Source: a virus
Lineage: Duplodnaviria > Caudoviricetes
DNA: 60,656 nt
IMG/VR virus record: IMGVR_UViG_3300044691_000256
Span: 1 to 60,656 of that record
Direction: 5' to 3' (one strand)
Shown here: positions 8,350 through 60,099 of the stretch, one piece after another
Numbering within the stretch: position 1 is the stretch's first letter
Layout of the letters: each line of letters starts with the position of its first letter
Program-made: the position numbers and the translations under genes
The notes under the pieces: model-generated
What the model was told of the DNA's origin: nothing
Databases searched by the model: none
Seen by the model: the letters and a program-made list of their open reading frames with translations, nothing else

Positions 8350-10202
8350 TCTGGTTCTCCTGTATGTACGTAATCCAACGACATGAACGTTGCAAATTCT
8401 CCGACGAACATCAGCTCCGCCTGAGCAAGCCCCGCGCCTTTGTTCCGGGCCTTCAACAAAACCACTTTGGTCTTAGCTTCCAAATTGTCCCGCGCCGGAA
8501 CCCCAGAATCGTCAGATTTGACCACCTCGCGGTGCAAAGCCAGCAGCCCGTCCACATCGTCTGATGCCGTGCCAGACCCCTTCAAGTCCTGAATCTGAAC
8601 CACCTTGCCCCGCCTGGTGTTGTCCGCCTTCTTTGGTGCGCCAAGAGCAATGACAATGCATTTGTGCGTCTGAGCGATAGATTTTAGCCGCTTGTTTACT
8701 ACTGCTTGAAGAGACACTTCGTTACTTGCGCTCCGAACCATAATCGCCACATTGTCAATTACAAGAATGTCAATGTTAAGCCGCTTGATCGCAGCTTCCA
8801 TCAAGTCGAGGGCGGCCTCGGCCTCTAGCATCGGATCGTACCCGACGTAGTAGCCCACCTCGCCCATCTGCTCTGCGGCCTCTATAAAATCTTCCCGCGT
8901 GAGGTGGTTGCGGTGGCGTTTCAGTATGTGAGCCGTTGTAATAGTCGCAAACAGCGTGGGGTCCAGCTCGCACTGCCAATTAAGAACACGACGAGCGAAC
9001 GTAACCGCGTTGAATACACTCGTGTTCATCTGAAATGCAGTTTTGCCTGTGCCTGTCTGTGTTGCGAAGATACTAAGAACATCGCCAGGGACGATAATGA
9101 GCATGTCATCAACGTCTTTCCATCCGAATCTGAGCCTGTCCGGACGGTCGGCCTGTGGGCCTTTTCCTCCAGATAACATCACACCCTGAAGGGAGTAGAC
9201 ATCTTTCATCGGCTGGGCCAAAGCTTGCCCGATAAGTTTGTCCATTTTCTGGACGAAGCCGTTCTTGTCCTTTAGATACAACTCGTTGGCATCTTTTGAA
9301 TCACCCCAGTCTACGAGAAATGTGCGTTCCCCTAATTGGTTCCAGAGCTTGGTCATAGCCGCCCTGCCTGGATCATCATTATCCCCAGCCAGAACCACAC
9401 GGTTGGCGGACATCAACCTATCTTTTTCAGTCGGCCCTAGAGAGGTGCTTGCCGATGCCAAACTCACGGATCGAAACCCGGCCTGCTCAAGCGCCATTAC
9501 ATCCAGTTCACCCTCACATACCAACACGTCCGAGAATGGATCTATCGTGTCCGAGTTGTAAAGTGCGGTAGCCATCCCAGCCTGTTTGGAGAACGCCTTG
9601 CGCCCCGCCACAACTGACCTGTACTTCAGACTGACGACTTTGTTGTCCACGAGACAGGGAAAAACCAGCCACCCCCTATCCGAAATATCAAGGTTCTTGT
9701 CGTCGTCGCGCATCTTCAAGGTCTGTCGGAACCCCGTATGCAGCCTCTGAGCAGTCTCCAGAGATATCCCCCGGCCCGCCAGCCATGCCTGAGCTTCCTT
9801 ACTGTTAGCCAGATTGCGTTCGTAGACTCCGTATTCTTGGAGACTGAATACCTTGTAGCTCTTTGCGGCATCTTGCACCGCTGGCTTAAAGACCCTGTCG
9901 ACCGCTGCTGCCTGTTCTGCGTATTTGCTTGGCCCCACGCCCACTATGTTTTTCACCTTGTCCACTGCTTCACGAAACGAAATACCGTCTGCCTTCTCTA
10001 CGACCTGGATTACGTTGAATGACCCACAGCCAGCAAAGCAGTGACTGAGCATGTCTTTCTCGTACACAACGAAGGAGGAGACATTGTCCTTATGGAACGG
10101 GCATGACCCCATCCACTTATTCCCTTCCTTCCTGAGCTTTGTGTAGAGGCTGTAGACTTTCAGGACCGAGGGTGAATGCTTGAGGCTGTCTAGGTCTTCC
10201 AT
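8346..10202 (-). CDS. Bifunctional primase-helicase (CHC2 zinc finger, TOPRIM, DnaB-like)
   Basis: CPFH..HCFAGC; CEGELD and GDND TOPRIM; TGTGKT Walker A, LVID, DLKGSG; start MEDL. Confidence 0.92.
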   Translation of the reverse strand: MEDLDSLKHSPSVLKVYSLYTKLRKEGNKWMGSCPFHKDNVSSFVVYEKDMLSHCFAGCGSFNVIQVVEKADGISFREAVDKVKNIVGVGPSKYAEQAAAVDRVFKPAVQDAAKSYKVFSLQEYGVYERNLANSKEAQAWLAGRGISLETAQRLHTGFRQTLKMRDDDKNLDISDRGWLVFPCLVDNKVVSLKYRSVVAGRKAFSKQAGMATALYNSDTIDPFSDVLVCEGELDVMALEQAGFRSVSLASASTSLGPTEKDRLMSANRVVLAGDNDDPGRAAMTKLWNQLGERTFLVDWGDSKDANELYLKDKNGFVQKMDKLIGQALAQPMKDVYSLQGVMLSGGKGPQADRPDRLRFGWKDVDDMLIIVPGDVLSIFATQTGTGKTAFQMNTSVFNAVTFARRVLNWQCELDPTLFATITTAHILKRHRNHLTREDFIEAAEQMGEVGYYVGYDPMLEAEAALDLMEAAIKRLNIDILVIDNVAIMVRSASNEVSLQAVVNKRLKSIAQTHKCIVIALGAPKKADNTRRGKVVQIQDLKGSGTASDDVDGLLALHREVVKSDDSGVPARDNLEAKTKVVLLKARNKGAGLAQAELMFVGEFATFMSLDYVHTGEPE

Positions 10203-16376: not shown

Positions 16377-18158
16377 CTAGTTGAATGCCTCTTCTATCTC
16401 TGGTTTTGCGACGATCAAATCTTTCAAAAATACCGAGGGTTTGCCGTGGTATGACAGGTGTAGCTCTCTGGCCGCTCGGCTTATCCCGACGAAGAATATG
16501 TTGGCCTCTTCTTTTGGCTCTCCGAGCTTGTGTGGAAGAACTTCGTCGTTACAGGCCACCAAAAATACTCTCGGCCACTCTAACCCCTTACTGCTATGAA
16601 TTGTTCCTATCGCCACTGCTTTCTTCGACTTAGAGGCGGCGGACACTCGGCGAATGTACTCAAGAAATTCTTTCAGAGTAGGAAACCGGGCACTAATCCG
16701 TATCAGCTCTGAAAGGTTCTCGCGGGGCGAAGAGTCCGGAGTAGCTTCATCCGCGTAGTAATCGAACGCTTTCAAGTCTTGTAAGATATTTGCTACAGCT
16801 TTCTGACATGGCACGTCTTTGTATCGGGTCAGGGTATGTAAGAACTGGACGAAGTTGCCAAGATTCTTGTCGGGCAGCGAGTTGAGAATTGACCACGCAG
16901 ACGGTTTGGGGTCAGCCTCCTGACGTTTCTTGACGGTTGCGGCGATTTCGGTTTTCTTCAGGAACTTCGAAGGGTGGAACGGGGAGCGTAGTGCGCCCAT
17001 AACGTTTCCGTCGTGTAGAGCCACGGCGCAGCCTAAGAAGGAGACTGCGCTTCTAACTTCTGGCTGTCCCCAAAAGCCGCTGCCCCCGAGTAATTTGTAC
17101 TTTACCCCGGCGGTGCTGAGTGCGTCCTCAAAACTTCGGAGCATCCGGTTGGTTCGGGCTAGGATAGCGGTATCAGACACGGTAACTTTGCTGGCTACGT
17201 CTTTAGCCTCGTACGCCGCCGAAGCGTACCCAGTCACCACAGGACGTTCACCCTCCGCGTTAGTCGTGTGAAACTTGTCCGCCAGTTCCCTTACGGACCC
17301 GTACTTCTTGCAGAGATCGACTATCTGGGGTGACGAGCGAAAATTCCTAGACAGGTACAAGGTCTTCGCGCCGGGGAACATGACTCCGAAGTTCATAAAC
17401 AGGTCGCCAGCGGCTCCACGGAAGGAGTAAATCCCCTGTGCCGCATCGCCGACGGCTAGAAGATTCCCGTGCTGTTTGGACACGAGTTGCAGGAGCCGCC
17501 ACTCCAAAACGCTGTTATCTTGGGATTCGTCGGATTGGCAGAATTTGTATTGCCACCGACCCGCGACCGCCGGATTCTTCTCTAACAGGTTCACCATCTC
17601 GACCAATAAACTATCGAAATCGAGTACGCCTTCAGAGCGAAGCCGACTGTCATAGGCTTTAAACGAGAGAGCCAGCTTCTCATTCTTTCCTTCTTTCTCT
17701 GCGATCTTGATAGCTTCGGTAGGGGTGATCCGGTTGCGTTTTTGAAGGCTGATGTAGTTCGGCAACTCCTTCCAGCTTACGTCGAACTTCCGGGCCAGTT
17801 CGTTGATGATCTTGTTCGCCACAGGAGGGGTCGCCAATGGAAAATCTGCCAATTTGAACGGAAAGCTGTCTCGCTCCTCCGAGGCGAACTTCAGGGCGAT
17901 GGAGTGGAATGTTCCCCACCCAGCCACTCTGTCCATTTTCTGGACACCGATCTCTGCCTCCGACTTGTCCCGCATCGATTTGGCAGCCTGACTGGTGAAG
18001 GTCATAGACAACACGTCGTCGGGCGACACGCCTTCTTGGATCAGACGGACATACCGCAGGACCAGGCAAGTGCTTTTTGAGCCGCCCGGCCCCGCGAGGC
18101 ACCTAAAGTACCCATTGTCCGCGTCCACCACTTTTTTCTGCTCATCTGAAAGTTGCAT
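16377..18158 (-). CDS. uvrD: UvrD/Rep-family helicase
   Basis: AGPG, TFT..AA, TFHS, DESQD, VGD..Q.IYSFRGA, NFRS and TIHSSKGLEW. Confidence 0.95.
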   Translation of the reverse strand: MQLSDEQKKVVDADNGYFRCLAGPGGSKSTCLVLRYVRLIQEGVSPDDVLSMTFTSQAAKSMRDKSEAEIGVQKMDRVAGWGTFHSIALKFASEERDSFPFKLADFPLATPPVANKIINELARKFDVSWKELPNYISLQKRNRITPTEAIKIAEKEGKNEKLALSFKAYDSRLRSEGVLDFDSLLVEMVNLLEKNPAVAGRWQYKFCQSDESQDNSVLEWRLLQLVSKQHGNLLAVGDAAQGIYSFRGAAGDLFMNFGVMFPGAKTLYLSRNFRSSPQIVDLCKKYGSVRELADKFHTTNAEGERPVVTGYASAAYEAKDVASKVTVSDTAILARTNRMLRSFEDALSTAGVKYKLLGGSGFWGQPEVRSAVSFLGCAVALHDGNVMGALRSPFHPSKFLKKTEIAATVKKRQEADPKPSAWSILNSLPDKNLGNFVQFLHTLTRYKDVPCQKAVANILQDLKAFDYYADEATPDSSPRENLSELIRISARFPTLKEFLEYIRRVSAASKSKKAVAIGTIHSSKGLEWPRVFLVACNDEVLPHKLGEPKEEANIFFVGISRAARELHLSYHGKPSVFLKDLIVAKPEIEEAFN

Positions 18159-25873: not shown

Positions 25874-27919
25874 CTATTTACGGTAGTAAGTTCCCAAATA
25901 GCCGCTTGCGTCCAGCGGCATGTCGAAATTCATCCAAGCTGGTTTGGAGGTCATGCACCGACGGAGTGTATCGACCCCAAGCGGCGATCCTACCGGCACT
26001 AAAGCAATGATCTCGTCATGCACATGGCCCACCACGGACATTCCAACCCTGTCCGCTTCGATCATCCCATTGATGAGGATGTCTCTGGCGATTGCTTGCA
26101 CGAGGTTCTCGCAAATCTTCGGGCCACCTGTGGCTATACGAGACCAAGCTCTGGTTCCCTGCTCTCTGCCTTCATAACTGAGCTGTGCCCGTTTGTATGG
26201 TCCGAACTTACCGTCGTGCTCTCGCATCTCCACAAGAGGGTGCATGTAGCTAAGGGAGCGTCCGGACGGCAGGTTTAGGCTGAGGAGAGTCTTGCCGGTA
26301 GCCCTGAAGCTGACGACACCCACGGGGAACTCCTGACCTGGATTGCGGACAGCAGAGATGGCGGCTTCTTGAAGATCCTTCCACAGCACCGGAACTTCTG
26401 GATACATCTTTCTAAAAACATCGACCGCCTTTGCTGATTCTTCCTGCGTAAGTTCAATATTCATCGCCGCCGCGTAGCCCCAGAGCCCCGAGCGGACAAT
26501 ATCCCCGTCCTCGGTCGTTTGTTCTTCTCCCCCGCCAAGACCATACGAACAGCCTAAAACCGGGGCCTTAGCTTTAGTTCTTTCCTCTTTGGTTACTTCT
26601 TCGTAGGGCTTATTGAACATTCGGGCTGCAAAGGTGATATACGGATCAAGACCCTGACGGAAAATATCCAACATTGGTTCACACCTAGCAGCCGCCCCCG
26701 CTACGCGAGACTCGATGGATGCAAGATCAACTACGACCAGATTGTTACCTTCGGGAGCGCGGAAGCTGGATCGAATAGTCGAGGTGATGACATCGAGCGG
26801 TTGGGTGAACTCGGCGATAATGGCGGCGTAGTCCATTTTCTGGACAAGTTCAATCGCCCTATCCATATTCTTTTCAACTTCTTTGGTCGGTCTCGGCAAA
26901 TTCTGGAGTTGAGCATCCCTTCCTGAAAATCTTCCGGTCCTCGCCGCACCATAGAACACGAATTGGTTGCGCAATCGACCGTCGGCGGACACGTTACGTG
27001 CAATTGCCGTGAACTTCCGAACCGAACTCTTCGAGGTCATTTTGCGGATTTCGAGAGCCTTACGCGCCCTGTCCGTAAGCTGGCACTCTCCGTTCATGGC
27101 CCGCTCTACGAACGCCTTGCCCAGACCGCCGAAGGTGTACCCCTCATTCTTAAGCCATCCCAAGATTTGATCGTTGCTGTTGCAATTATCTAGGTTCGTG
27201 AGTTCTTTGAGTTGTCCGCGCAGTTTTTCAAGTTCCCGGTCGGCGATGTCCTGCGCCCCTCTAATCAGAGGTAGGTCCACGGGCATTCCGGCAGCATTCA
27301 CCTTCTCGTTCAACTCCCAGCCCTGCCGCTCCAGTTCTGGCACTGGAAACCGAGCCATCTTCTTCATAATCGTCCGCTCGGCCTCAACGTCCCGGACGCA
27401 GTAATCAAGTAGTAACTGCCAGTCTTGGGGGTCGGTCGACCAGTCGCGGAAAGTCGGTTTAGATACGCCGAACAGGGTTTGCACCCCGCCCAAAGTTTGG
27501 GGTTCCGAGAACATCTTTAGTAACCGCTTACCATCCCGCAGCTTGGCCTCGTCTTCCTTTAATCCCAAAATTTTACCGGCATCCTCCAAACTGCCGGGCA
27601 TCGAAAGGTATCTGGCTTGGATGGAAGGGTCTACCCACTCCGAGGTCGGCTTGTCCATTTTCTGGACAAACTTGGTGATCGACCGTTCGAAGGGGCTATT
27701 CCATGCGGCAACTTGTACGAACGGATCTTCGATAACTTCGCGTAACTCGGCGGGCATCTTAGGCTCAAGATGAGGCTGCCACACGCGCACCTTGTTATCT
27801 CCTTCTGCGAATGCAGCACAAAGGATCGATGTCGTCGGATCGGTCGCATAATTGTGTAACCCCCGTGTTTGCAGGTCGCAACAACTCCGCGACTCATAGT
27901 CGAGGTGATAAAGAGTCAT
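25874..27919 (-). CDS. Family A DNA polymerase with 3'-5' exonuclease
   Basis: LDYE, AWN..FE, ARTGRFSG, QNLPR, DLASIE, K...LG.SYG, ENLVQAIARD and HVHDE. Confidence 0.95.
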   Translation of the reverse strand: MTLYHLDYESRSCCDLQTRGLHNYATDPTTSILCAAFAEGDNKVRVWQPHLEPKMPAELREVIEDPFVQVAAWNSPFERSITKFVQKMDKPTSEWVDPSIQARYLSMPGSLEDAGKILGLKEDEAKLRDGKRLLKMFSEPQTLGGVQTLFGVSKPTFRDWSTDPQDWQLLLDYCVRDVEAERTIMKKMARFPVPELERQGWELNEKVNAAGMPVDLPLIRGAQDIADRELEKLRGQLKELTNLDNCNSNDQILGWLKNEGYTFGGLGKAFVERAMNGECQLTDRARKALEIRKMTSKSSVRKFTAIARNVSADGRLRNQFVFYGAARTGRFSGRDAQLQNLPRPTKEVEKNMDRAIELVQKMDYAAIIAEFTQPLDVITSTIRSSFRAPEGNNLVVVDLASIESRVAGAAARCEPMLDIFRQGLDPYITFAARMFNKPYEEVTKEERTKAKAPVLGCSYGLGGGEEQTTEDGDIVRSGLWGYAAAMNIELTQEESAKAVDVFRKMYPEVPVLWKDLQEAAISAVRNPGQEFPVGVVSFRATGKTLLSLNLPSGRSLSYMHPLVEMREHDGKFGPYKRAQLSYEGREQGTRAWSRIATGGPKICENLVQAIARDILINGMIEADRVGMSVVGHVHDEIIALVPVGSPLGVDTLRRCMTSKPAWMNFDMPLDASGYLGTYYRK

Positions 27920-29924: not shown

Positions 29925-31046
29925 ATGTCCTCCTCCATCTTTCGACGGCACACCCCAAACTGTCCGCATTCTTCCAAAGGCCGGGATTTTCTCAAATGCA
30001 GTTGCCCGCTCTGGGCCGACGGCTATGTCGACGGCAAGCGAGTCCTCAGAAAGTCTCTTAGGACGCGGGACATGGCTAGGGGTCGCAAGAAGGCTGCCGC
30101 CCTTGAGACGCAGGACACTCGCCTGCTCAAGTCAATCGTGGAGGCCGTGGATTCCTTCCTGACGCACTGCAAGAGCAACGGGGTGCAGGACTCTTCCTGG
30201 AGAAAGTACCGGGCAACAATGGAGATCCTGAAAGCCTTCTGCAAGCAAGCGGAGCTGGAAACCGTAGCAGAGATGGATGTGGACTTCCTCGACGCCTTCC
30301 GAGCCAGCCGATCATTAGCCCCGATCACCGCCGTATCGGAGCTTCGTTTGCTGCGTCAGTTCTTTACCTATTGCTTTGACCGGCGTTGGGTGGAGACGAA
30401 CCCGGCCAAGGCTATCAAACTGCCGAGCGGCCTGAAACCGACGGATAAGGAACCCTATACTCCCTCTGAGATGGCAGCCATCATCGCGGCCTGTGACCGG
30501 ATTGGGCACAGTGCCTATGAGCGTCTAAGGTCAAGGGCGATGGTCCTGCTCCTACGCTATACCGCTCTGCGCATCGGAGACGTAGCCCTGCTCGCCTGCA
30601 ACCGTATCAGTTCGGACGGCAAGACTTGGCGCATCTTCCTGAGAACAGAGAAAAGTGGCAAGCCGATCTTCCTGCCCATTCCCCAGGAGTTGAGAGACGC
30701 ACTAGAGGCTGTCCCCAAGCGGAGCGAGACCCATTTCTTCTGGGGCGGGGTCAACTCCGAGCGGACCATGAAAGGCATTGCCCAGAGAGTGATGCGCTCG
30801 GTCTTCCGTCGATCCAAGGTGGAGCTAGCCCACGCCCACCGATTCCGCCATACTCTGGCTACCGAGCTGCTGGTCAAGGGTGCTACCTTTGAAGAGGTGG
30901 CTGACATTCTGGGCAACACTCCAGATGTCGTCCGCAGACACTACGCCAAGTGGTGTGTGGGTCGGCAGACCCGGATTGATGAGCTTATGGCGCGGGTCCA
31001 CGATACGGCAGAGTACACGGTTCCGAGGCCCCAATTGGTGAATTGA
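29925..31046 (+). CDS. int: Tyrosine integrase 1
   Basis: TALRIGD, K, HRFRHT, ILGN and HY catalytic residues. Confidence 0.95.
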   Translation: MSSSIFRRHTPNCPHSSKGRDFLKCSCPLWADGYVDGKRVLRKSLRTRDMARGRKKAAALETQDTRLLKSIVEAVDSFLTHCKSNGVQDSSWRKYRATMEILKAFCKQAELETVAEMDVDFLDAFRASRSLAPITAVSELRLLRQFFTYCFDRRWVETNPAKAIKLPSGLKPTDKEPYTPSEMAAIIAACDRIGHSAYERLRSRAMVLLLRYTALRIGDVALLACNRISSDGKTWRIFLRTEKSGKPIFLPIPQELRDALEAVPKRSETHFFWGGVNSERTMKGIAQRVMRSVFRRSKVELAHAHRFRHTLATELLVKGATFEEVADILGNTPDVVRRHYAKWCVGRQTRIDELMARVHDTAEYTVPRPQLVN

Positions 31047-32112: not shown

Positions 32113-32718
32113 TTATTCGTAAACAACGTCTTCCATCTGGGCTTTGGTGTAGCGCCGGAACACGATCTTTACCTCTTCACCCTCCTCAAGAGAGTCCAGC
32201 GAGGTCTCGATGTGCTCTAGGGCGTCCTTCATCGTCGTGCAAACAAGAAAGTCCCAGCCGCTGCGTCCGGCGCACGAGCCATACACTTCGTAGACATCCG
32301 TGAGATTCGGCTCAGGCACACGAGGGGCAGCGTAAGTAGATGTTTGACTGGCGCACCGGCTCTGTTGGAATTCTGTGTGAACCCAATAGTCAGCAGCGAT
32401 ACTTGTGTTTAGCCTTATTGGCTCGCCGCACCACTTGCATACTGTCGCTTGCTCTAGCTTCGGCTGTGCAACCGCTTCCTCTGCAATCTCTTGGATGAAG
32501 CTCTCGATAATGTCTTGCATGTGTGCGCTGTAGTTCCAGATGCGGTAGGCTTGGCTGAAGAACTCCCTGACCTTGTCGTACACGTTCGGAGACACGCACC
32601 GCCACAGTTCGATTCGAGCGTTTCTACCGTCATCGTTGCAGTAGTAGGCTTTGATCTTATACCCGCGATACTCGTCAGTCTCGTAGGCTAGTTTCTCTAG
32701 GAGTTCGTCTGTGCTCAT
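32113..32718 (-). CDS. Hypothetical protein
   Basis: 201 aa, coupled to integrase 2. Confidence 0.6.
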   Translation of the reverse strand: MSTDELLEKLAYETDEYRGYKIKAYYCNDDGRNARIELWRCVSPNVYDKVREFFSQAYRIWNYSAHMQDIIESFIQEIAEEAVAQPKLEQATVCKWCGEPIRLNTSIAADYWVHTEFQQSRCASQTSTYAAPRVPEPNLTDVYEVYGSCAGRSGWDFLVCTTMKDALEHIETSLDSLEEGEEVKIVFRRYTKAQMEDVVYE

Positions 32719-33797
32719 TTCTCCTCCAGTAATCCCCTAAGCCTGGACCGCAGCTCGGGCACAAACGGTGTATAGTGCTTTTCGGCTACGGCTGTTGTGA
32801 TCCCTAACATTTTGGCTACGTCGTACATGGTGCCGCCGCGCAGCAAAATTGTTACGGCCAGCGTGTCACGAAACCTGTGGGGGCGGCAACCTGGAACTTT
32901 AGCACGGTCTCCCAAAGCGCGGACAAGGTTGTAGAGTTGAGTCCGGGTAGACGCCACGCCGTCTAGGACGAACCCCTCGTCCATCTTCTCCCGCATCAAC
33001 CATCTCACGAGGTACGCTTGGACCGGAATAACGACCTCCTTGCCTGTCTTGAGCATCGTCCGTCGTATCTCTTCGCTGTTGAAGTTGACTTCAGACCATT
33101 TCAGATCCACAGCATCCGACCCACGCAGTCCGGTCCACCGCAGAAGAGTGATAGCAAACTGTTCTTTGTCGGTCGCGCAGGCCGTCATTCGATCCATATC
33201 TTCATCCGTAAAAGGCTGCGTCACACTTCTCTCCGCTGTCGACTTCACTTTCTTGACCGGGTTCGCGCCGACCATATTTTCCTCCTTCGCAAAGCTGAAC
33301 ACCCCGCGTAACAGGTCCATCTCTTTTTCGAGCGCAGCCCCGTTACGGTATTGTGGTTTTGAGGCTGTTTCCGTTTCACGCCGGGAGCGGTATTTTTCCA
33401 TAACAGACTTGGTTATATATGTCAAGGGGGTACTGGCGGCGTTCGGTAGACTCTCTTCGAAGGTCTTGAGGTATCGGTCGTAGGCCCGCGCTGTGGATTT
33501 GGCCCATCCCTTGATGTGCTCTTTCCAATAAATGGACAACAGGTCGCCCCAGGTGCCGAGGGGCCGCACATCTACACCAACATGTCCGCTGAATCTTTTC
33601 CACGTCTGAGGAGGTAAGCTAGGCTCAAGGTCTATCCAGGCTTGACTACGCGGACCATCGGACATGGCAAAGCTGATTCGTGTCGCCAGCCGCTTCGCCG
33701 ACTTAGGATCTGAAGTCCCGAGCGGACCTCGTAAGCGCACCGGGCCAGACACGTAGTCTACGTGGTAGAGGTTGCCGCGCTTGCGAGTGGTGATCAC
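32715..33797 (-). CDS. int: Tyrosine integrase/recombinase 2
   Basis: TGLRGSD, KTG, HRFRDT, MLG and EKHY. Confidence 0.93.
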   Translation of the reverse strand: MITTRKRGNLYHVDYVSGPVRLRGPLGTSDPKSAKRLATRISFAMSDGPRSQAWIDLEPSLPPQTWKRFSGHVGVDVRPLGTWGDLLSIYWKEHIKGWAKSTARAYDRYLKTFEESLPNAASTPLTYITKSVMEKYRSRRETETASKPQYRNGAALEKEMDLLRGVFSFAKEENMVGANPVKKVKSTAERSVTQPFTDEDMDRMTACATDKEQFAITLLRWTGLRGSDAVDLKWSEVNFNSEEIRRTMLKTGKEVVIPVQAYLVRWLMREKMDEGFVLDGVASTRTQLYNLVRALGDRAKVPGCRPHRFRDTLAVTILLRGGTMYDVAKMLGITTAVAEKHYTPFVPELRSRLRGLLEEK

Positions 33798-41139: not shown

Positions 41140-41205
41140 TCCCATTAGCCCCGGAGTAATCCAGGTTTCTAGCCACACTGCGTAGAAGTTGGGAGTATCG
41201 TGGCC
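41140..41205 (-). ncRNA. HDV-like self-cleaving ribozyme
   Basis: P1 GGCCAC/GUGGCU, P2 UCCCA/UGGGA, P3 ACU/AGU, L3 UCUACGC, P4 CCUGGA/UCCGGG, J4/2 GCUAA. Confidence 0.85.
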
Positions 41206-42426
41206 GCGTCCAGAAAATGGACGGGTTGTGTTACCGAACGTGACAGAGGGCCACAAAGTCAGCTTTAGAGAGATCGCGCAACTCCTCCGCGAACTTCTGG
41301 TTGCCAAATTCGTGGGTCCAGGTCGACCGGCCAAGCGCGCGCTCCGCGTATTCTTGAATATCTGCAAACGGGCCACATGTGAAACCTGTGTACGCCCCGA
41401 TGATCGCCGCCTGTTCCTTAGTAAGTTGTTCCATGTCCGTTATCCTTTCCTCATGTCCTGATCCAACTGCAACGCAACCGCAAGCTGTTCCAGGTACCGT
41501 CTGTTTAACGTCGTTAGTGTTTTCTCAAACTCTTCGCTTGAGAGTCCGTCTGGGCAGTTCCAGCCGCGATACTCCCACTCACGGCGGATGATATTGGCTA
41601 GCTCGTCCTTTTGTAAGAGGGACATTTTGATAGACCTTTGTTATTCAGAAGTGTTTCATAAACCTTGCGCCGTGGCAATACTTATTATGGGCAAAATCGC
41701 GTCTTTATTCGGTGATCGCTTCGCCGCGCAGCCCGCCCGCGAGATACTGGAACCCGTTGACATCTACCACCAGCCCGTCAGCGGTTGCACCTTCCGCCAC
41801 ATCTACCGCGTACTGCATTGATTCTGTGTAAGGAACGCCTTCGTCGTCAACGTTCGATGTTAGCCAATCTCTGCCTTGATCCGAGACCCCGCAGAGAGCA
41901 TAGAAACCTTGTCCGTGGATGCTGATATCTGCCTGCATATTACCTCCGTAAATCCAGAAAATGGACGAACTAGATTGACAGCATCCGTGCGTTGTTTCGG
42001 CCTTCGCGCAACAGATCGCACGCATCGCAGAGGTTTCTAAAGGCTTGGGTTCCGCTATACGCGATGACTTGGTGATCTTGCGACCGGGACCGCACCAGAT
42101 AATCATTAGCAGATATCATAATGCGCTCTGCTTCCCGTGCGGCTACACGCGTAACCTTTCTCTTTGTGTTTTCCATGTCCGTATCCTCTCAGTTTGGGGT
42201 TTGTCCAGAAAATGGACGAACTAGACGGGTGTTTAGTGCTTGGTTACATCCGTGATGATGGCCGCGCCGACCGACCAATTACCCCAATCGTTATTATTCT
42301 CCGGGGTCTCGTCCAGTGCACGGTTGATTGCTGTCTCTACTTCGTTTTCCCCGACCGCGGCCGGAACCGTAACAGTCAGAGTTAGTGTGATTGTTCGCAT
42401 TTTCATGTCCGTTATCCTCTCAATTT

Positions 42427-42489
42427 TTGGCTACTGCTAGGGGCTGACTACTCCCCCTTTCATCCCAGCCAAGGGAATCATCAGGCAGT
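42427..42489 (-). ncRNA. Type I hammerhead ribozyme
   Basis: ACUGC-CUGAUGA-U-UCCC/GGGA-U-GAAA-GGGG/CCCC-UA-GCAGU; loop II UUGGCU pairs with 3' AGCCAA. Confidence 0.85.
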
Positions 42490-42493
42490 TGGT

Positions 42494-42817
42494 TTATTGC
42501 TTCCAGTGGAGATCGACAGGCACCAAATCCAAGAGCTTACCGGATGCTTTAGGTTCTGATTCCATGATCTCATCAGCTTCTTTCCAGTCCTGCGCGGCGA
42601 TCATGATGTAGTCCGCCGCGTGTACAGCATCCCAGTGTGCCGCGCCGGTAATACGGTTTCCACCAATGTGTTCATGGTAGGCAATCGCCACCGCTTGCGG
42701 GGATTTCAACCCTTGTGCATCAAAGGTTCGCTTGCCAGTATCTTGGCTGTGAAAGGGGGTGCCTCCGTTGTAGGCCATCCCATACCAACCATCGGTTTGC
42801 TTCCATATTGCGAGCAT
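42494..42817 (-). CDS. Hypothetical protein between two ribozymes
   Basis: 107 aa, GAGGAG RBS. Confidence 0.7.
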   Translation of the reverse strand: MLAIWKQTDGWYGMAYNGGTPFHSQDTGKRTFDAQGLKSPQAVAIAYHEHIGGNRITGAAHWDAVHAADYIMIAAQDWKEADEIMESEPKASGKLLDLVPVDLHWKQ

Positions 42818-42831
42818 AATCTCCTCTTTTC

Positions 42832-42884
42832 CCCTCCATTAGTAGATGCTCAGGTTCGCCGCGTGAAGGCTGGAAGATGAACCC
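42832..42884 (-). ncRNA. Minimal HDV-like ribozyme (no P4)
   Basis: P1 GGGUUC/GAACCU, P2 UCUUCCA/UGGAGGG, P3 GCC/GGC, L3 UUCACGC, J4/2 CUAA. Confidence 0.8.
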
Positions 42885-42964
42885 ATTGCCTGATTACCGC
42901 TCAGGCGGGCGGGTGAGCTGTCAATGTTTACTGCTGCGGTAAATATGGCGTTTGCGGTAAATAT

Positions 42965-43309
42965 TCAGTTCCGTGCAAGCAAAGCAAGCATTTCTTCTGT
43001 AAAATCCCCCGCATCTGTAAAGACGCTGACCTCCTCCCCGTCCCTTGTTGTGGCGTACAGCGGCCAAGTGGATCGACTATTGAGCGGTCGTTCCAGATAA
43101 ATCTCCTCCCCACTCACCATAAGGCGAACATTGGAAACGGAGATTCCGCCCGTATCTTGGTTCTGGTGGATGTCGAACGGTTCTCCGTCGTGCTCCAATT
43201 CGACGCCGGGCCGATTAGCCGTCTCAAGGCAGATGTAAATGCGACCCAAGCACTTGAGCAGGTTTGATTCGTTGAATAGATCGCGGGGGATTACTCGGAG
43301 ATAGCTCAC
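42965..43309 (-). CDS. Hypothetical phage protein
   Basis: MSY.RVIPRDLFNE..LLKC.G...PLNSR..WPL. Confidence 0.7.
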   Translation of the reverse strand: MSYLRVIPRDLFNESNLLKCLGRIYICLETANRPGVELEHDGEPFDIHQNQDTGGISVSNVRLMVSGEEIYLERPLNSRSTWPLYATTRDGEEVSVFTDAGDFTEEMLALLARN

Positions 43310-44986
43310 TAGCGCACCTCCGAGATAGGATCGCCGTCGTCGTCCAGCGTAAAGCCGTTCTCTTCCAACGTCCTCAGAATGAAAGCGTCAAGAGTACCGC
43401 AGTCCAGGTTACCCGTTTCGCCGTTCAATAGCTTGCGGATACCCTGTCCAATCTCAACCCACGAATCGCCGATTAGAGGATCAGCGGTGTGTATGTCCGC
43501 CTCATAGCGTTTCCGGTGCTCATCTGCATACTTGGACCAGTACAAAAGCATACGGACAATTGGAACCTCAAAGCCTCTCGGTGTATCAATTGCTTCATTG
43601 TGCCTTACTTGCTGTTGGTCTAAAGAAACGCTGTATCCGCCCGAAATCTTTTCTGTTGCCTTTATCTTTGCCATTTGATGCTCCTTGTCTGCATATAGCG
43701 GCAAACACACTGTTTATACATCCGTCCAGAAAATGGACAACCGCCTGTAAGCTATTCCTTAACGTCCGGGAAGATGCTTCCGAAGTACCAGCATCCTCCC
43801 GTAATAAATTCGACAATGCGCCCCACATCCGACGCCTTGAAAGTGTAGGTGCGGTGGTTCATGCCTAGGTAGTGCGCCCGCGATTGTCCAACGTCTGAAG
43901 TTTCCACGGTGAATGCTTGCCGTTCGGTTACAGATGTTGCGCCCCAGCCGTTCGTTCCGGTGTGTTGCCTTTTCTCGCCTAATGCTTTCATAACTCCTCC
44001 GTTTACATCATCTTTACAAAGTTGTGTCCATTTTCTGGATGGACTAAAGTTAGTACCCCAACCATTCTAGTACAGCCCGCCCGTTATACTCAGGCAGGGT
44101 ACCCAGCTCGGCCATAAACTCTATAGGCTCATGTCCGTGCTTTACAATCTCTGCTAAAGCCTCAGACTGAGAGACCATAGGTTCATCACAAAAGACTTCT
44201 TCTAGGGACATATCAGAACTCCGATCCAGGTTAGAGATGCGTTTAGACTTCGTTTGCCGTGGCACTAATCGGCTAGTGTCAAAGCAAGCTGGTTCTGCTC
44301 GGAAATTTCGCCGTTACTGTGAATCGTAAAGTTTGGGCAGAGCTTCATCTCTGCATCTGTTAGAGAATTCCAGGCGGCCATGTACAAACGGTAGGACGGA
44401 TGCCAGTTGGTCATAGCAACCCGTTTCGCGGTCTCGGCCCATTTCTTGCAATCGGCAACACAGCACTCGCGTACCATGTCTTGATTGCCGTAATGGTCGA
44501 TACCGCAGGAGTGTTCCCCTATGTATCTGTTTGATTCGACGCAAATGTAAGGCATGATTGCTCCGTGTTTCCCTCTCCGCTTTCTTCCTGTCAGACTTGA
44601 GACTGACCATTGGCGCGTTAGGACCGCTAGACATCAGCGGTATGTGTAAATCTCGGATGGCAGAAGATGTCCCGCTCGTTTCCATTTGGGCATATCCTTC
44701 CATGGTAGGTGGTGCAGCGACAATTTTTGCACTGGGCCGATTCTCCCATCAGAGCCGCTAGATTTTGCTCGCACCAAAACGAGTTGAGCATATCGCGTGA
44801 CGGAGCCACTTTGCCGCGAAAATCCGTTAGGAGCCATGCGCGGCCATCAGGTTCGCGAAACATGAAAACGTCTTTATGTGACGGGCCAGCAAACTCGAAC
44901 CCGTATTCTTGCATGAGTTTTGGAACGTCCGCAGACTTGGCAACGGAGAGATAAGCATGTTGTGCTCGTGTCATAGATTCCTTTCA

Positions 44987-45048
44987 GCCTGTCATCTTCA
45001 GGTACGGTAGGCAAGATCCGTACTACGGGCAGGTTCGCCCGTTTCGAC
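44987..45048 (-). ncRNA. Type II hammerhead ribozyme
   Basis: GUC-GAAAC-GGGC/GCCC-GUA-GUACGG/CCGUAC-CUGAAGA-U-GAC; loop I GCCU pairs with 3' AGGC. Confidence 0.88.
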
Positions 45049-46099
45049 TAGTCGAGCACATTCCACTTGCCTACCTTGTTGCCGTTCGTGTCCATTACCA
45101 CGCCGGTGTTATCCGTTGTCAAAACTTCCTCCATCGGCGTCATGTGGAACGAATGACGGAAGGCATAAAAAACATCGTTGGCGGTTTGCATCGCATCGTT
45201 GCCCAGCTCGATCTCAAGTGTGAACTTCATTTCATCCTCAATTCTGTCCATTTTCTGGACGGTTGGCGCGGGCTATGCACTATAAGCCATGTCCGCAAGT
45301 CTATCGTTTATAAGGGTTAAGAGTAGACAGTTGAGCGGCCATAATCACAACTAAAGCCACAATAGAGGGAGAGAAGAGAAGATACATAAAGACTCCTATC
45401 GGGTTTGTACAACCATTGGTGCTCTCCTCAGAATTCGACTGAGCCGGAACCGTGTTCGCTGATTCCTTGGCTAATATCGCTAAAGAGCACCAATGGGCAT
45501 ACAGCACCCATCCTAGAGAGTTCCGCCAAAGACGTGCAGATCGCCGCGAATGATCGCAACTTCCTTAACCTTGACGCGGGTAGGGTCAACATTGACCAAC
45601 AGCTCGGAACCCCGACCCTCTTCCTGAAACTTTTCCCACTCCGTCACCGCTTCATACTGTTGGGCTGACGCGTCACCGTGAAAGGTAACACCCTCGACAT
45701 CCGAGAAGGTTTTCTCGATGCGGCCAAAGTTCAAGCTAACAAAGACTGTCATTTGCTTTTCTCCAGTAATCATGCTTACTCCATCCAATATGGACCGTCC
45801 AGATTATATTGTCAACAGTTTTTTCAACTTTATTTTCAAATCGCTCAACCAAACCGACTGCCTTATCGATGTATAAGAGTGAGCCTGTAGTACGCGCCGC
45901 GCCCTAATCACTCAAATAGGCAATCAATCGGAGTATTGCGGACCGAACCCATGCGGTAAATACAGCGTCCAGGCTCACACTTTAATCCAGAAAATGGACA
46001 GTAAACTGTCTCAGCTCGCACGATAGACTAGTGGGGAAGTACCAAAAGGTAAGGCCACCCCGATTAGAGATGGCCAAAGACTGCGGACAGGGTAAAGAC

Positions 46100-56678: not shown

Positions 56679-56785
56679 TGCTGAGTGAGTGGAGAAACGG
56701 CATTCCACCTCGTTCAACATCAGAGGCGGGCCGCCCGAGGTTATGCGGCAACGGCTCGTGTGCAGGTTCGAATCCTGCCTCAGCA
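56679..56785 (+). ncRNA. tRNA-like RNA (atypical anticodon arm)
   Basis: Acceptor TGCTGAG/CTCAGCA, T arm GCAGG-TTCGAAT-CCTGC, D-like stem GTGGA/TCCAC, long variable arm. Confidence 0.65.
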
Positions 56786-56948
56786 GAAATTTAATAAGTG
56801 TGGTGGCACCTGATCGGGTAAGTAGTTTTCCACCAGGGGCAGAATAAGCGCCCCAAAGTTTCGTGGCCGAGAAGTGGCCACGGTAGTCCATTTTCTGGAC
56901 AAAACATAAATTCACTAAATTCCCAATTAAAGTACTAAGAAAGCATCC

Positions 56949-59696: not shown

Positions 59697-60099
59697 GGCT
59701 AGAGAAAAGGGATTGACCACGTACTTCGGCTACATGCACGGCCAACAAGTAATCACCTACGAGCTGGGCTTTTTAGAACCGGCGGACAAATGTAACGTAG
59801 GTCTGTTGTGCGCGATGCCCGACGGATACTTCCGCTGGGTGGCGATGGGCCGAGGTAATAGCTGGGAACAAGCCTTCACAGATGTAGATTCACGAATCAA
59901 CTGAACCGTCCAGAAAATGGACAAAAATCTCCGCTCCGCCCGGATTGGCGAAGGACAAAGTAAACATGGCAACTAACATAGACGAACTACGAACATTGGC
60001 ACAAGCACTGCTCGACGATACGCTCTCGGGATCGGCCAAAACCTCGGCAATCCGCACAATAAGTAAATATATGCTCGATGCCATTCGGGGAGGCAAATA

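Follow-up and report, generated by a model that had tools for sequence, protein, structure and literature searches.

An unusually dense, mixed-class block of candidate self-cleaving ribozymes in an uncultured soil phage

The early transcripts of phage T7 are polycistronic RNAs that the host enzyme RNase III cuts between genes at hairpins, leaving 5'-phosphate and 3'-OH ends. The role that self-cleaving ribozymes play in bacteria and in phages is described in a review (PMC6765202) as still unknown, with the exception of glmS; that review also points to unrelated ribozyme classes in equivalent places in bacteria, and concludes that what counts is the cleavage, not the particular motif. For clustered prophage hammerheads, whose cleavage of a polycistronic RNA of ~2 kb is seen in E. 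coli as well as in vitro, Perreault et al. 2011 (PMC3088659) proposed the processing of long transcripts into single-gene mRNAs; in their account circular products were considered and were not detected. Among minimal HDV-like RNAs, Kienbeck et al. 2024 (PMC10879173), who describe the theta ribozymes of Caudoviricetes, report 526 matches that have no tRNA association and whose function is given there as unknown.

We describe here a block of small genes, 4 kb in length, from an uncultured phage of soil origin, in which two HDV-like, two hammerhead and one twister candidate all lie on the minus strand of the window (that is, of the whole 60,656-nt stretch of DNA that was analysed). All five motifs are intergenic and in the sense orientation, and are located just 5' of a ribosome-binding site. 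The block is an unusually dense, mixed-class case of a known but still unexplained phage habit. An initial annotation had reported four ribozymes of two classes; inspection of the letters recovered all four on the minus strand at the coordinates given for them, and the sequence together with the gene calls places each between an upstream stop codon and the next ribosome-binding site. Its count fell short, however, inasmuch as a twister at 44624-44569 had been overlooked, so that there are five motifs of three classes. Taken as candidates from their sequences, the HDV-like RNAs are strongly supported, the twister is well supported and both hammerheads are moderately supported. Comparison with Rfam models, which the annotation had put forward as a check on its four motifs, turned out negative at the level of the gathering score, which no match within the window reached.

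Anatomy of the five motifs

The features of the block are given below in the direction of transcription, with the kind of evidence in brackets; G003 is a related 106-kb phage genome (98% complete).

45815-45787, minus strand: sigma-70-like promoter match, TTGACA-17-CATATT, 5' of the ribozyme block
45048-44987, minus strand: candidate type II hammerhead (sequence, descriptor)
44974-44627, minus strand: gene B, 115 aa, between hammerhead II and the twister
44624-44569, minus strand: candidate type-P1 twister without P3 (Rfam sub-threshold match, parse, relatives)
42905-42889, minus strand: hairpin CCUGA-GCGGUAA-UCAGG, 4 nt 5' of the predicted HDV-like b cut
42884-42832, minus strand: HDV-like b, minimal, 53 nt (sequence, G003 homologue, covariation, model R1)
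42817-42494, minus strand: gene H, 107 aa, between HDV-like b and hammerhead I
42489-42427, minus strand: candidate type I hammerhead (sequence, descriptor)
41222-41208, minus strand: copy of a phage-wide hairpin, GUCCAUUUUCUGGAC, ending 2 nt before the predicted HDV-like a cut
41205-41140, minus strand: HDV-like a, 66 nt (sequence, covariation, model R1)

Both HDV-like RNAs have the nested double pseudoknot P1/P1.1/P2/P3 with the cut predicted at the 5' end of P1. In copy a, P1 is GGCCAC/GUGGCU, P2 is UCCCA/UGGGA, P3 is ACU/AGU with L3 UCUACGC, P1.1 consists of AG with CU, and there is a P4 of 6 bp (CCUGGA/UCCGGG); J4/2 reads CUAA, the putative catalytic C is at 41148 and the predicted cut is 5' of G41205. 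In copy b, which is without P4, P1 is GGGUUC/GAACCU, P2 is CUUCCA/UGGAGG and P3 is GCC/GGC with L3 UUCACGC; J4/2 again reads CUAA, the putative catalytic C is at 42842 and cleavage is predicted 5' of G42884. J4/2 begins with a cytosine, putatively the catalytic one that HDV-like ribozymes have at this position as described in PMC10879173, in all three sequences of an alignment that comprises copies a and b (which are paralogues) and a homologue of copy b at 62815-62866 of G003. Across these three sequences, 50 of the 51 pair cells hold standard pairs, as compared with 26-45% when the 3' partners are slid; both sides change in 12 of the 17 pairs of P1, P2, P3 and P1.1, and the cut-site G-U pair and the CUAA of J4/2 are invariant. 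Covariation in a related phage, another check that the annotation had named, is thus present, and because of it the HDV-like RNAs are more than chance resemblances. Model R1 gives 50.0 bits to copy a and 68.1 bits to copy b. The Rfam scores of copy a with drz-agam-1 (14.9 bits, E 3.1) and of copy b with HDV-F-prausnitzii (14.2 bits, E 4.7) are at chance level and under the thresholds of 37 and 44, but the alignments are in register. A loose HDV descriptor is uninformative by itself (6 loci in the window versus 6.1 in shuffles).

The upstream neighbours of the two copies are 5-bp hairpins, of which the one at 42905-42889 is kept in G003 as CCGGA-GCGUA-UCCGG, with a compensatory stem change from U-A to G-C. 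ARAGORN found no tRNA in the window; the theta arrangement, with a cut at most 5 nt from a tRNA 3' end, is accordingly absent there. A long ORF (41376-40546) that runs across HDV-like a was rejected as spurious on evidence from gene M and from the homologues of gene N: gene M (41434-41231, minus strand) encodes a DUF7736 protein, and alignments of the gene N homologues cover the ATG-41121 product only from its residue 5, none of them including the upstream extension.

The candidate twister consists of P1 (UCC/GGA), P2 (CGC/GCG), P4 (GUCAG/CUGAC), L4 UCUCAAGU and the two pseudoknots T1 (CUC with GAG) and T2 (GC with GU), that is, of the elements P1, P2, P4, T1 and T2 in the definition given by PMC5408937; its predicted cut is U44620/A44619. 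The minimum-free-energy fold returns P1, P2 and P4. The Rfam twister-P1 model scores 29.5 bits (E 0.0023 in 5.1 kb, 2.2e-4 in 490 nt) against a gathering score of 67.2 bits; the model expects P3, which is optional in twisters, and a type-P1 twister without P3 is a known active architecture by the description in PMC5408937. T1, a pseudoknot that the covariance model does not score, covaries across three phages: the window has CUC/GAG, G003 has CAC/GUG and a third phage (L145) has GAC/GUC, the family consensus being CCC/GGG.

Both hammerhead candidates match the published consensus: each has every core nucleotide, namely C3-A9 (CUGANGA), G12 A13 A14, the A15.1-U16.1 pair and, at the cut site, an H17 that is not G (CUGAUGA...GAAA...UA in I, CUGAAGA...GAAA...UA in II), three stems in one of the three circular permutations (5/4/5 bp for type I, 6/3/7 bp for type II) and a loop-to-tail pairing like those described in bacterial hammerheads. 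In hammerhead I, stem I is ACUGC/GCAGU (5 bp) and is followed by CUGAUGA (42484-42478); stem II (42476-42463, 4 bp) is adjoined by a U10.1/U11.1 mismatch; and GAA (42461-42459, within the GAAA of the core) precedes stem III (42458-42439, 5 bp) and A17 (42438), the predicted cut being 42438/42437. Its tail AGCCAA (42432-42427) can pair along its whole length with loop II UUGGCU, in six Watson-Crick pairs (chance p ~0.0009). In hammerhead II, the 3' strand of stem II, GUC (45048-45046), overlaps the TAG stop codon of gene A and pairs with the 5' strand GAC (44993-44991, 3 bp); GAA (45045-43, again within GAAA) precedes stem III (45042-45025), which has 7 bp including a closing G-U wobble (6 bp were entered in model R3); A17 is 45024, with the cut predicted at 45024/45023; and the stem I hairpin (45023-45002, 6 bp) precedes CUGAAGA (45001-44995). 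An extra U (44994) stands between A9 and G10.1, and there is precedent for an extra U after A9 in hammerheads. AGGC (44990-44987) is complementary to loop I GCCU (45012-45009; 4 bp, chance p ~0.07), and pairing of loop I with the tail is a hallmark of type II hammerheads as described in PMC3088659.

The annotation had also described gene H as bracketed, which it is, by HDV-like b on one side and hammerhead I on the other; given the twister, gene B is bracketed too. The predicted cuts are 45024/45023, 44620/44619, 42885/42884, 42438/42437 and 41206/41205, from which the excised RNA of gene B would be 45023-44620 (404 nt) and that of gene H 42884-42438 (447 nt). Neither gene matched a known family; gene H has one homologue (77% identity, on a 995-nt contig) and gene B has 7 besides itself.

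One relative carries a different set in a comparable block. In G003 a single strand has, inside 3.2 kb, a twister, a hammerhead and an HDV-like RNA, each followed by a Shine-Dalgarno sequence and an ATG, which is the same arrangement as in the window; the twister there matches Twister-P5 with 57.3 bits (threshold 37.6), and the hammerhead, in the equivalent block, is a canonical type III at 61889-61943. In the third phage (L145/G008), where related twisters score 41.1 and 39.3 bits, the element in front of the gene B homologue (76% identity) is a twister; at that place the window has a hammerhead.

Processing of the transcript and other readings

The best explanation of these observations, and in our judgement a probable one, is that the transcript of the block is cut in cis by the five ribozymes. 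Transcription of the minus-strand small genes from ~45.8 to 40.5 kb would yield a single long RNA, or a few, along which hammerhead II would cut first in order of position, followed by the twister, HDV-like b, hammerhead I and lastly HDV-like a; the pieces would hold gene A with the genes before it, gene B by itself (404 nt), genes C-G (1735 nt), gene H by itself (447 nt), genes I-M (1232 nt) and everything from gene N on. Downstream pieces would begin with a 5'-OH, upstream pieces would end in a 2',3'-cyclic phosphate, and at least one new end at each cut would be structured: the downstream mRNA would keep the HDV-like or twister fold at its 5' end, just ahead of the Shine-Dalgarno sequence, and the upstream RNA would keep at its 3' end either stems II and III of a hammerhead or a conserved hairpin, such as that at 42889-42905, which would form this end after cleavage by HDV-like b. 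Ribozyme processing of a polycistronic transcript was the annotation's own proposal; it is plausible, in that both the anatomy (sense, intergenic, 5' of a ribosome-binding site) and the arrangement in G003 fit it, but it is not novel, having been proposed in 2011.

Joint transcription of the genes, in vivo cleavage and any influence on translation or on stability are what we infer from this arrangement; the sole public run that holds DNA of this phage is a DNA run. The label "early operon" is a reading of gene content and of promoter-like sites. Promoter-like sites in this region are not enriched relative to shuffles and, because of this, the match at 45787-45815 is a lead only; internal promoters within the block are a possible alternative to co-transcription.

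It is less likely, though worth serious consideration, that the ribozymes chiefly insulate exchangeable cassettes by way of a fixed, context-independent 5' leader, with mRNA stabilisation being secondary; and we attach the same rather low likelihood to a module of ribozyme and Shine-Dalgarno sequence that is retained, or moves, as the genes on either side are exchanged. The HDV-like homologue in G003 speaks for such insulation, since its upstream hairpin, the linker GAGCAUCUACUAA and the distance to the Shine-Dalgarno sequence are all preserved between two flanking genes that are both unrelated to those in the window, as does gene B, which keeps an upstream ribozyme, of a different class, in L145/G008. 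Contigs of the source sample also contain joints that skip whole genes and whose ends are at stop codons or hairpins; these are weak evidence because their flanks are short (23-29 nt), and the tool flags this type of joint as unreliable. Moreover, insulation overlaps with cutting of the transcript in cis and does not exclude it.

The hammerheads raise a separate question, namely whether the HDV-like RNAs and the twister are real and one or both hammerheads are chance look-alikes or decayed, inactive copies; we consider this unlikely. Neither candidate matched Rfam RF00163 or RF02276 (Hammerhead_1 and Hammerhead_II) at E<=10; a search of 1.0 Mb of loci, some related and some not, returned no homologues, and two loop-anchored scans of viral contigs gave chance matches only, for which reason there is no covariation to draw upon. 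Both are non-canonical at the G10.1-C11.1 closing pair, the most conserved pair of stem II (I through the U-U mismatch, II through the extra U), and their folds lie 2.3 (I) and 2.5 (II) kcal/mol above the minimum-free-energy folds. With loose thresholds (stems >=4, 3, 3 bp), hammerhead-like matches are common, at 0.56-0.60 per shuffled window, and PMC3088659 itself warns of chance consensus matches and of some inactive natural variants. On the other hand, the descriptor matches in the window are exactly two, hammerheads I and II; with stems >=5, 3, 5 bp, thresholds that were set after the candidates had been seen, shuffled windows give 0.027 matches each and two such matches in only 1/1000. 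Both candidates are intergenic, in sense and at most 2.6 kb from three better-supported ribozymes; the complementarity of loop II to the tail in hammerhead I would seldom arise by chance; the U10.1-U11.1 combination is a natural variant with activity (PMC3088659); and the equivalent block of G003 has a canonical hammerhead. A related contig from the source sample differs in hammerhead I by, among the differences listed, one substitution, a 1-nt deletion in a G run and a 2-nt insertion, and those listed lie in loops II/III or leave the stems intact, sparing stems and core.

RtcB substrates have 5'-OH and 2',3'-cyclic phosphate ends, which, from the geometry of the cuts, the units of both gene H (42884-42438) and gene B (45023-44620) would bear. 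That an RtcB-type ligase joins them into circular mRNAs is nevertheless highly improbable, since neither the window nor G003 nor G008 encodes RtcB (PF01139), so that ligation would require a host enzyme, no sequence feature brings the two ends together, and circular or spliced products of prophage hammerhead clusters were, in the account of Perreault et al. (PMC3088659), sought and not found.

Comparison with described systems

Cutting in cis, the preferred reading, may have a more general form: tentatively, and with less confidence than for the block itself, ribozymes of at least three classes in a clade of ~106-kb soil phages could be interchangeable punctuation of the early transcript, kept or exchanged independently of the genes that they separate and working together with short conserved hairpins that supply new 3' ends. 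If so, the clade would offer a natural series on what ribozyme cleavage does for a phage, and the remaining structured intergenic spacers of these blocks would be promising sites in which to seek additional cleaving motifs, as yet undescribed. In any case, five candidate ribozymes of three classes within 4 kb, with two single genes predicted to be excised on both sides, constitute a compact test bed, for which a natural comparison exists in one relative, whose comparable block contains another set, and in a third phage with another class before the same gene.

As in T7, a polycistronic RNA would be cut between genes into defined mRNAs; unlike in T7, the cutting would be done by the RNA itself, with 5'-OH and cyclic-phosphate ends as the result. 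Like the prophage hammerhead clusters described in PMC3088659, the block has several sense, intergenic ribozymes, single genes that are bracketed by them and hammerheads of types I and II together, and it shares with those hammerheads the loop-tail pseudoknots, the U10.1-U11.1 variant and the same processing hypothesis. It differs from that description in that hammerheads are here mixed with HDV-like and twister RNAs, in that they belong to an uncultured soil virus known from sequence, and in that they have no Rfam-model score.

The candidate twister resembles twisters of type P1 that lack P3 and P5, among them the O. sativa construct of PMC5408937, in P1, P2, P4, T1, T2 and the conserved nucleotides of L1 and L4, and differs from twisters of that type in its short P1 and P2 (3 bp each) and in a middle T1 pair that is U-A rather than C-G; its score lies below the Rfam gathering threshold. 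The HDV-like RNAs, compared by description with those of PMC10879173, are likewise non-coding and in sense with the neighbouring gene; copy b shares with theta ribozymes the P4-less double pseudoknot of ~53 nt in a tailed phage. Unlike theta ribozymes as described there, neither copy has a tRNA beside it, the source is soil and not gut, and copy a has a P4. Minimal HDV-like ribozymes are thereby extended from gut phages to a soil phage; and, relative to the co-location summarized in PMC6765202, HDV-like ribozymes here also take part, so that HDV-like RNAs without a tRNA join a pattern previously described for hammerhead, twister, pistol and hatchet ribozymes.

Predicted ribozymes at the junctions of a small-gene block

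The initial annotation placed four self-cleaving ribozymes of two classes, two of them HDV-like RNAs and two hammerheads, within about 4 kb of the minus strand. They belong to a block of about 25 small minus-strand ORFs that separates the replication genes from the plus-strand structural genes. Reading the sequence bears out both the coordinates of the four motifs and their placement, each following a stop codon and preceding the Shine-Dalgarno sequence and ATG of the next gene. The observation is confirmed, and a twister brings the count to five ribozymes in three classes:

Ribozyme motifs and upstream promoter-like site of the block
45815-45787: sigma-70-like site, upstream of the block
45048-44987, minus strand: hammerhead II, type II
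44624-44569, minus strand: twister
42884-42832, minus strand: HDV-like b
42489-42427, minus strand: hammerhead I, type I
41205-41140, minus strand: HDV-like a

That the block is an 'early operon' can reasonably be inferred, rather than counted as a result, because of its position with respect to replication and structural genes and because of the sigma-70-like site upstream. A TTGACA at about 42925 is ruled out as a promoter by its 22-nt spacer. A long ORF (41376-40546) that would span HDV-like a is regarded as spurious, because gene M, which it overlaps, encodes a DUF7736 protein and because alignments with gene N homologues begin at residue 5 of the product that starts at ATG-41121 and never take in the upstream extension.

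Evidence for the individual classes

An Rfam search of the window, the check that had originally been suggested, yields no match at gathering score. For the HDV-like RNAs the Rfam scores are at chance level (drz-agam-1, 14.9 bits; HDV-F-prausnitzii, 14.2 bits), although the alignments are in register. The main evidence comes instead from G003, a related phage (105,825 bases, 98% complete; portal gene about 65% identical in DNA to that of the window), which was reached by scanning viral contigs for the recurrent hairpin described below and which harbors a Twister-P5, a type III hammerhead and an HDV-like homologue (L100:3415-3466) within 3.2 kb of one strand (59721-62866). This homologue of HDV-like b (62815-62866) has its P3 and its linker GAGCAUCUACUAA in common with that RNA, and L3 is almost unchanged; its P1 is GGCUCU/AGAGCU versus GGGUUC/GAACCU in HDV-like b, and its P2 AGGCAA/UUGCCU versus CUUCCA/UGGAGG. 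When it is aligned with the two window copies, standard pairs occupy 50 of 51 cells, as against 26-45% with slid partners; of the 17 pairs in P1, P2, P3 and P1.1 (the last of 2 bp), 12 differ in both partners among the three sequences; and the observed pairing score is reached by none of 500 shuffles. The cut-site G-U pair and the CUAA junction, with its putative catalytic C, are invariant. By these pairing patterns, the HDV-like RNAs of the window and of G003 are predicted to adopt the double pseudoknot given as the defining fold of the family in PMC10879173.

P4 is 6 bp long in HDV-like a and absent from HDV-like b, which in this respect resembles the minimal ribozymes described in the same source (PMC10879173). 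No tRNA adjoins either RNA, so they are not theta ribozymes in the strict sense; nor can the hairpin upstream of HDV-like b be a tRNA acceptor/T arm, since just 2-4 nt follow it. A model (R1) built from the three HDV-like sequences detects no additional member when run over 583 kb and none in G008, a third phage, and the linker pattern of HDV-like b recovers G003 plus two chance matches among viral contigs and nothing among genome contigs. A direct repeat, ATATTTACCGCA, occurs in two copies 7 nt apart (42935-42964, minus strand) directly after the gene G stop and upstream of HDV-like b.

The twister was detected in permissive Rfam scans as a twister-P1 match of 29.5 bits between the gene B stop and the gene C ribosome-binding site. 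It comprises a P1 of 3 bp, a U-A cut site, a P2 of 3 bp, and a P4 of 5 bp, and its loops carry the conserved nucleotides; P1, P2 and P4 are all recovered by the minimum-free-energy fold. The Twister-P5 of G003 (59721-59778; L100:321-378) scores 57.3 bits against a threshold of 37.6, and G008, found by means of a gene B homologue alignment, contains two P3-less, type-P1 twisters (41.1 and 39.3 bits), in which P1 is weak or absent, a condition tolerated in twisters (PMC5408937):

Paralogous twisters of G008
L145:2405-2456 and L145:3083-3135: one directly upstream of the gene B homologue, the other two genes further

The pseudoknot T1, which consists of three Watson-Crick pairs linking loop L4 with internal loop L1 (PMC5408937) and which covariance models do not score, varies from phage to phage: the family consensus is CCC/GGG, whereas the window has CUC/GAG, G003 CAC/GUG and G008 GAC/GUC; P2 and P4 likewise vary between these elements with pairing retained. 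(Three of the twisters were parsed by script, the MAFFT alignment being out of register, and the fourth, permuted sequence was read separately.) The window twister is very likely real.

Each hammerhead has a complete core and three stems, and a descriptor that admits all three permutations and allows the base of stem II a single irregularity matches exactly these two sites when both strands of the window are scanned. At loose thresholds it also finds 0.56-0.60 matches per shuffled window, which leaves a match by itself with little weight; when the stems must reach 5, 3 and 5 bp, a threshold set after the data were seen, it finds 0.027 per shuffle, and two matches in one of 1000 shuffles. Several independent points speak for them. 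Each occupies an intergenic site in the sense orientation, at most 2.6 kb from the three better-supported ribozymes. In hammerhead I the 6-nt loop II is fully complementary to the tail directly after stem I (chance about 0.0009), and in hammerhead II loop I pairs with four bases directly 3' of stem II (chance about 0.07), which is the arrangement of most type II hammerheads according to PMC3088659; a pseudoknot of at least 4 bp is by itself non-discriminating, occurring in 159 of 275 long-loop shuffle matches. Hammerhead I carries a U10.1-U11.1 mismatch, a natural variant that keeps its activity (PMC3088659), and among the differences listed for a related source-sample contig, those in this motif affect loops II/III or shorten a G run, leaving stem III unbroken.

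Against the hammerheads, their folds are less stable, by 2.3 and 2.5 kcal/mol, than the nested folds of minimum free energy; neither folding energies nor z-scores discriminate. Rfam recognizes neither site, whether five short pieces are scanned permissively or the Hammerhead_II and Hammerhead_1 models are applied directly, and the 13 and 10 stretches of viral contigs that match the loop patterns all belong to unrelated coding families, none being a hammerhead. Covariation in related phages, on which the original proposal had been made to depend, is seen for the HDV-like RNAs, through the G003 homologue; for the hammerheads, models (R2 and R3) find no homologue in 1.0 Mb. A further point in favor is the G003 hammerhead (61889-61943; L100 about 2489-2543), a canonical type III element that has the G10.1-C11.1 pair and whose stems measure 6-of-7, 4 and 4 bp; it sits just before a Shine-Dalgarno sequence, which the 3' strand of its stem III (GGG) overlaps, and because the ATG called for the following gene falls within its CUGAUGA, translation probably begins at the ATG after that. 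Each of the two window candidates is quite likely to be a selected hammerhead motif.

The phage, its relatives and a recurrent hairpin

The window (60,656 bases, the whole IMG/VR record) is an estimated 57% complete and encodes a primase/helicase, a helicase, a DNA polymerase, a RecT-like protein, two DNA methyltransferases, a terminase large subunit and a portal protein. The sole public run containing its DNA, and probably the one it came from, is a DNA run of a soil metagenome. Two tyrosine recombinases are also encoded, and the phage may be temperate:

Tyrosine recombinases of the phage-integrase family
29925-31046, plus strand
32715-33797, minus strand

ARAGORN finds no tRNA in the window, including at a stretch between the terminase and portal genes (GCAGGTTCGAATCCTGC, 56760-56790, plus strand) that resembles the T arm and acceptor 3' strand of a tRNA; it may be what is left of a tRNA, or else the core of an attachment site. 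G003 and G004 each have a group I intron, and G003 an array of 17 tRNA genes (L098:10069-10250, L104:7525-7703, L099:11871-15517); that region is absent from the 57%-complete window.

Among deposited phages, blastn gives a single 154-nt match, to a Ralstonia phage. Gene N leads to two viral and four metagenome loci, none with matching upstream genes; gene H and the DNA polymerase lead to no relatives in viral contigs; proteins A-M have no tblastn match in the collected loci, nor the gene B alignment in genome contigs. Gene H has a homologue on a 995-nt contig, and gene B has seven homologues. Source-sample contigs bridge whole genes (I+J, E and A) at joints 41972/42413, 43746/44050 and 45053/45227-45236, whose ends are stop codons or hairpins; these joints, with flanks of just 23-29 nt, a length flagged unreliable, hint that gene cassettes are present or absent among co-occurring relatives.

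The window contains 51 copies of a palindromic 15-nt hairpin, GTCCATTTTCTGGAC (core GTCCATTTTCTGGA), versus 0.57 expected (at most two mismatches, both orientations), and G003 has 27 exact copies of the core:

Example copies of GTCCATTTTCTGGA
41209-41222, minus strand
26831-26844, plus strand
27653-27666, plus strand
17931-17944, plus strand
9240-9253, plus strand

Many copies are intergenic and several lie within long ORFs, including those of the DNA polymerase, helicase and primase/helicase; a role in RNA only is insufficient to account for every copy. One copy stops 2 nt short of the HDV-like a cut site, and a variant forms P1 of the G003 Twister-P5. Both HDV-like cut sites are preceded, at 2-4 nt, by a 5-bp hairpin--the phage-wide one for a and CCUGA...UCAGG for b, the latter kept in G003 with a compensatory stem change. 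Where neighboring genes of the block are separated by a spacer, it usually contains a ribozyme or the 15-nt hairpin. The K/L spacer of 79 nt (41626-41704, minus strand) contains neither the hairpin nor a recognized ribozyme and is worth inspecting, given the co-location rule used for finding new ribozyme classes.

Transcript processing and known systems

Five cis-cleavages of a transcript spanning the whole block, if there is one, would yield six RNAs, two of them single-gene RNAs cut at both ends (gene B, 45023-44620; gene H, 42884-42438). The HDV-like and twister folds would stay as compact 5'-OH ends immediately upstream of a Shine-Dalgarno sequence, and each upstream RNA would have as its 3' end either hammerhead stems or the 5-bp hairpin near an HDV-like cut site. 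RNAs with 5'-OH ends escape 5'-monophosphate-stimulated decay, which may be relevant in this phage. The further suggestion that RtcB ligates such RNAs into circular mRNAs finds no support beyond end chemistry, because RtcB is encoded by neither the window, G003 nor G008.

The transcript-processing interpretation itself is partly supported, and as a hypothesis it already existed. In prophages, multiple hammerheads flank single genes, a polycistronic RNA of about 2 kb was cleaved in vitro and in E. coli, and single-gene mRNA processing was proposed, circles being sought and not found (Perreault et al. 2011; PMC3088659). Minimal HDV-like ribozymes in tailed phages are likewise on record, with 526 non-tRNA-associated matches left unexplained (Kienbeck et al. 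2024; PMC10879173). A partial literature search found no description of a phage gene block that combines HDV-like ribozymes with hammerheads and twisters. Given these two precedents and that search, the block is a new, dense, mixed-class case of an already known kind of arrangement.
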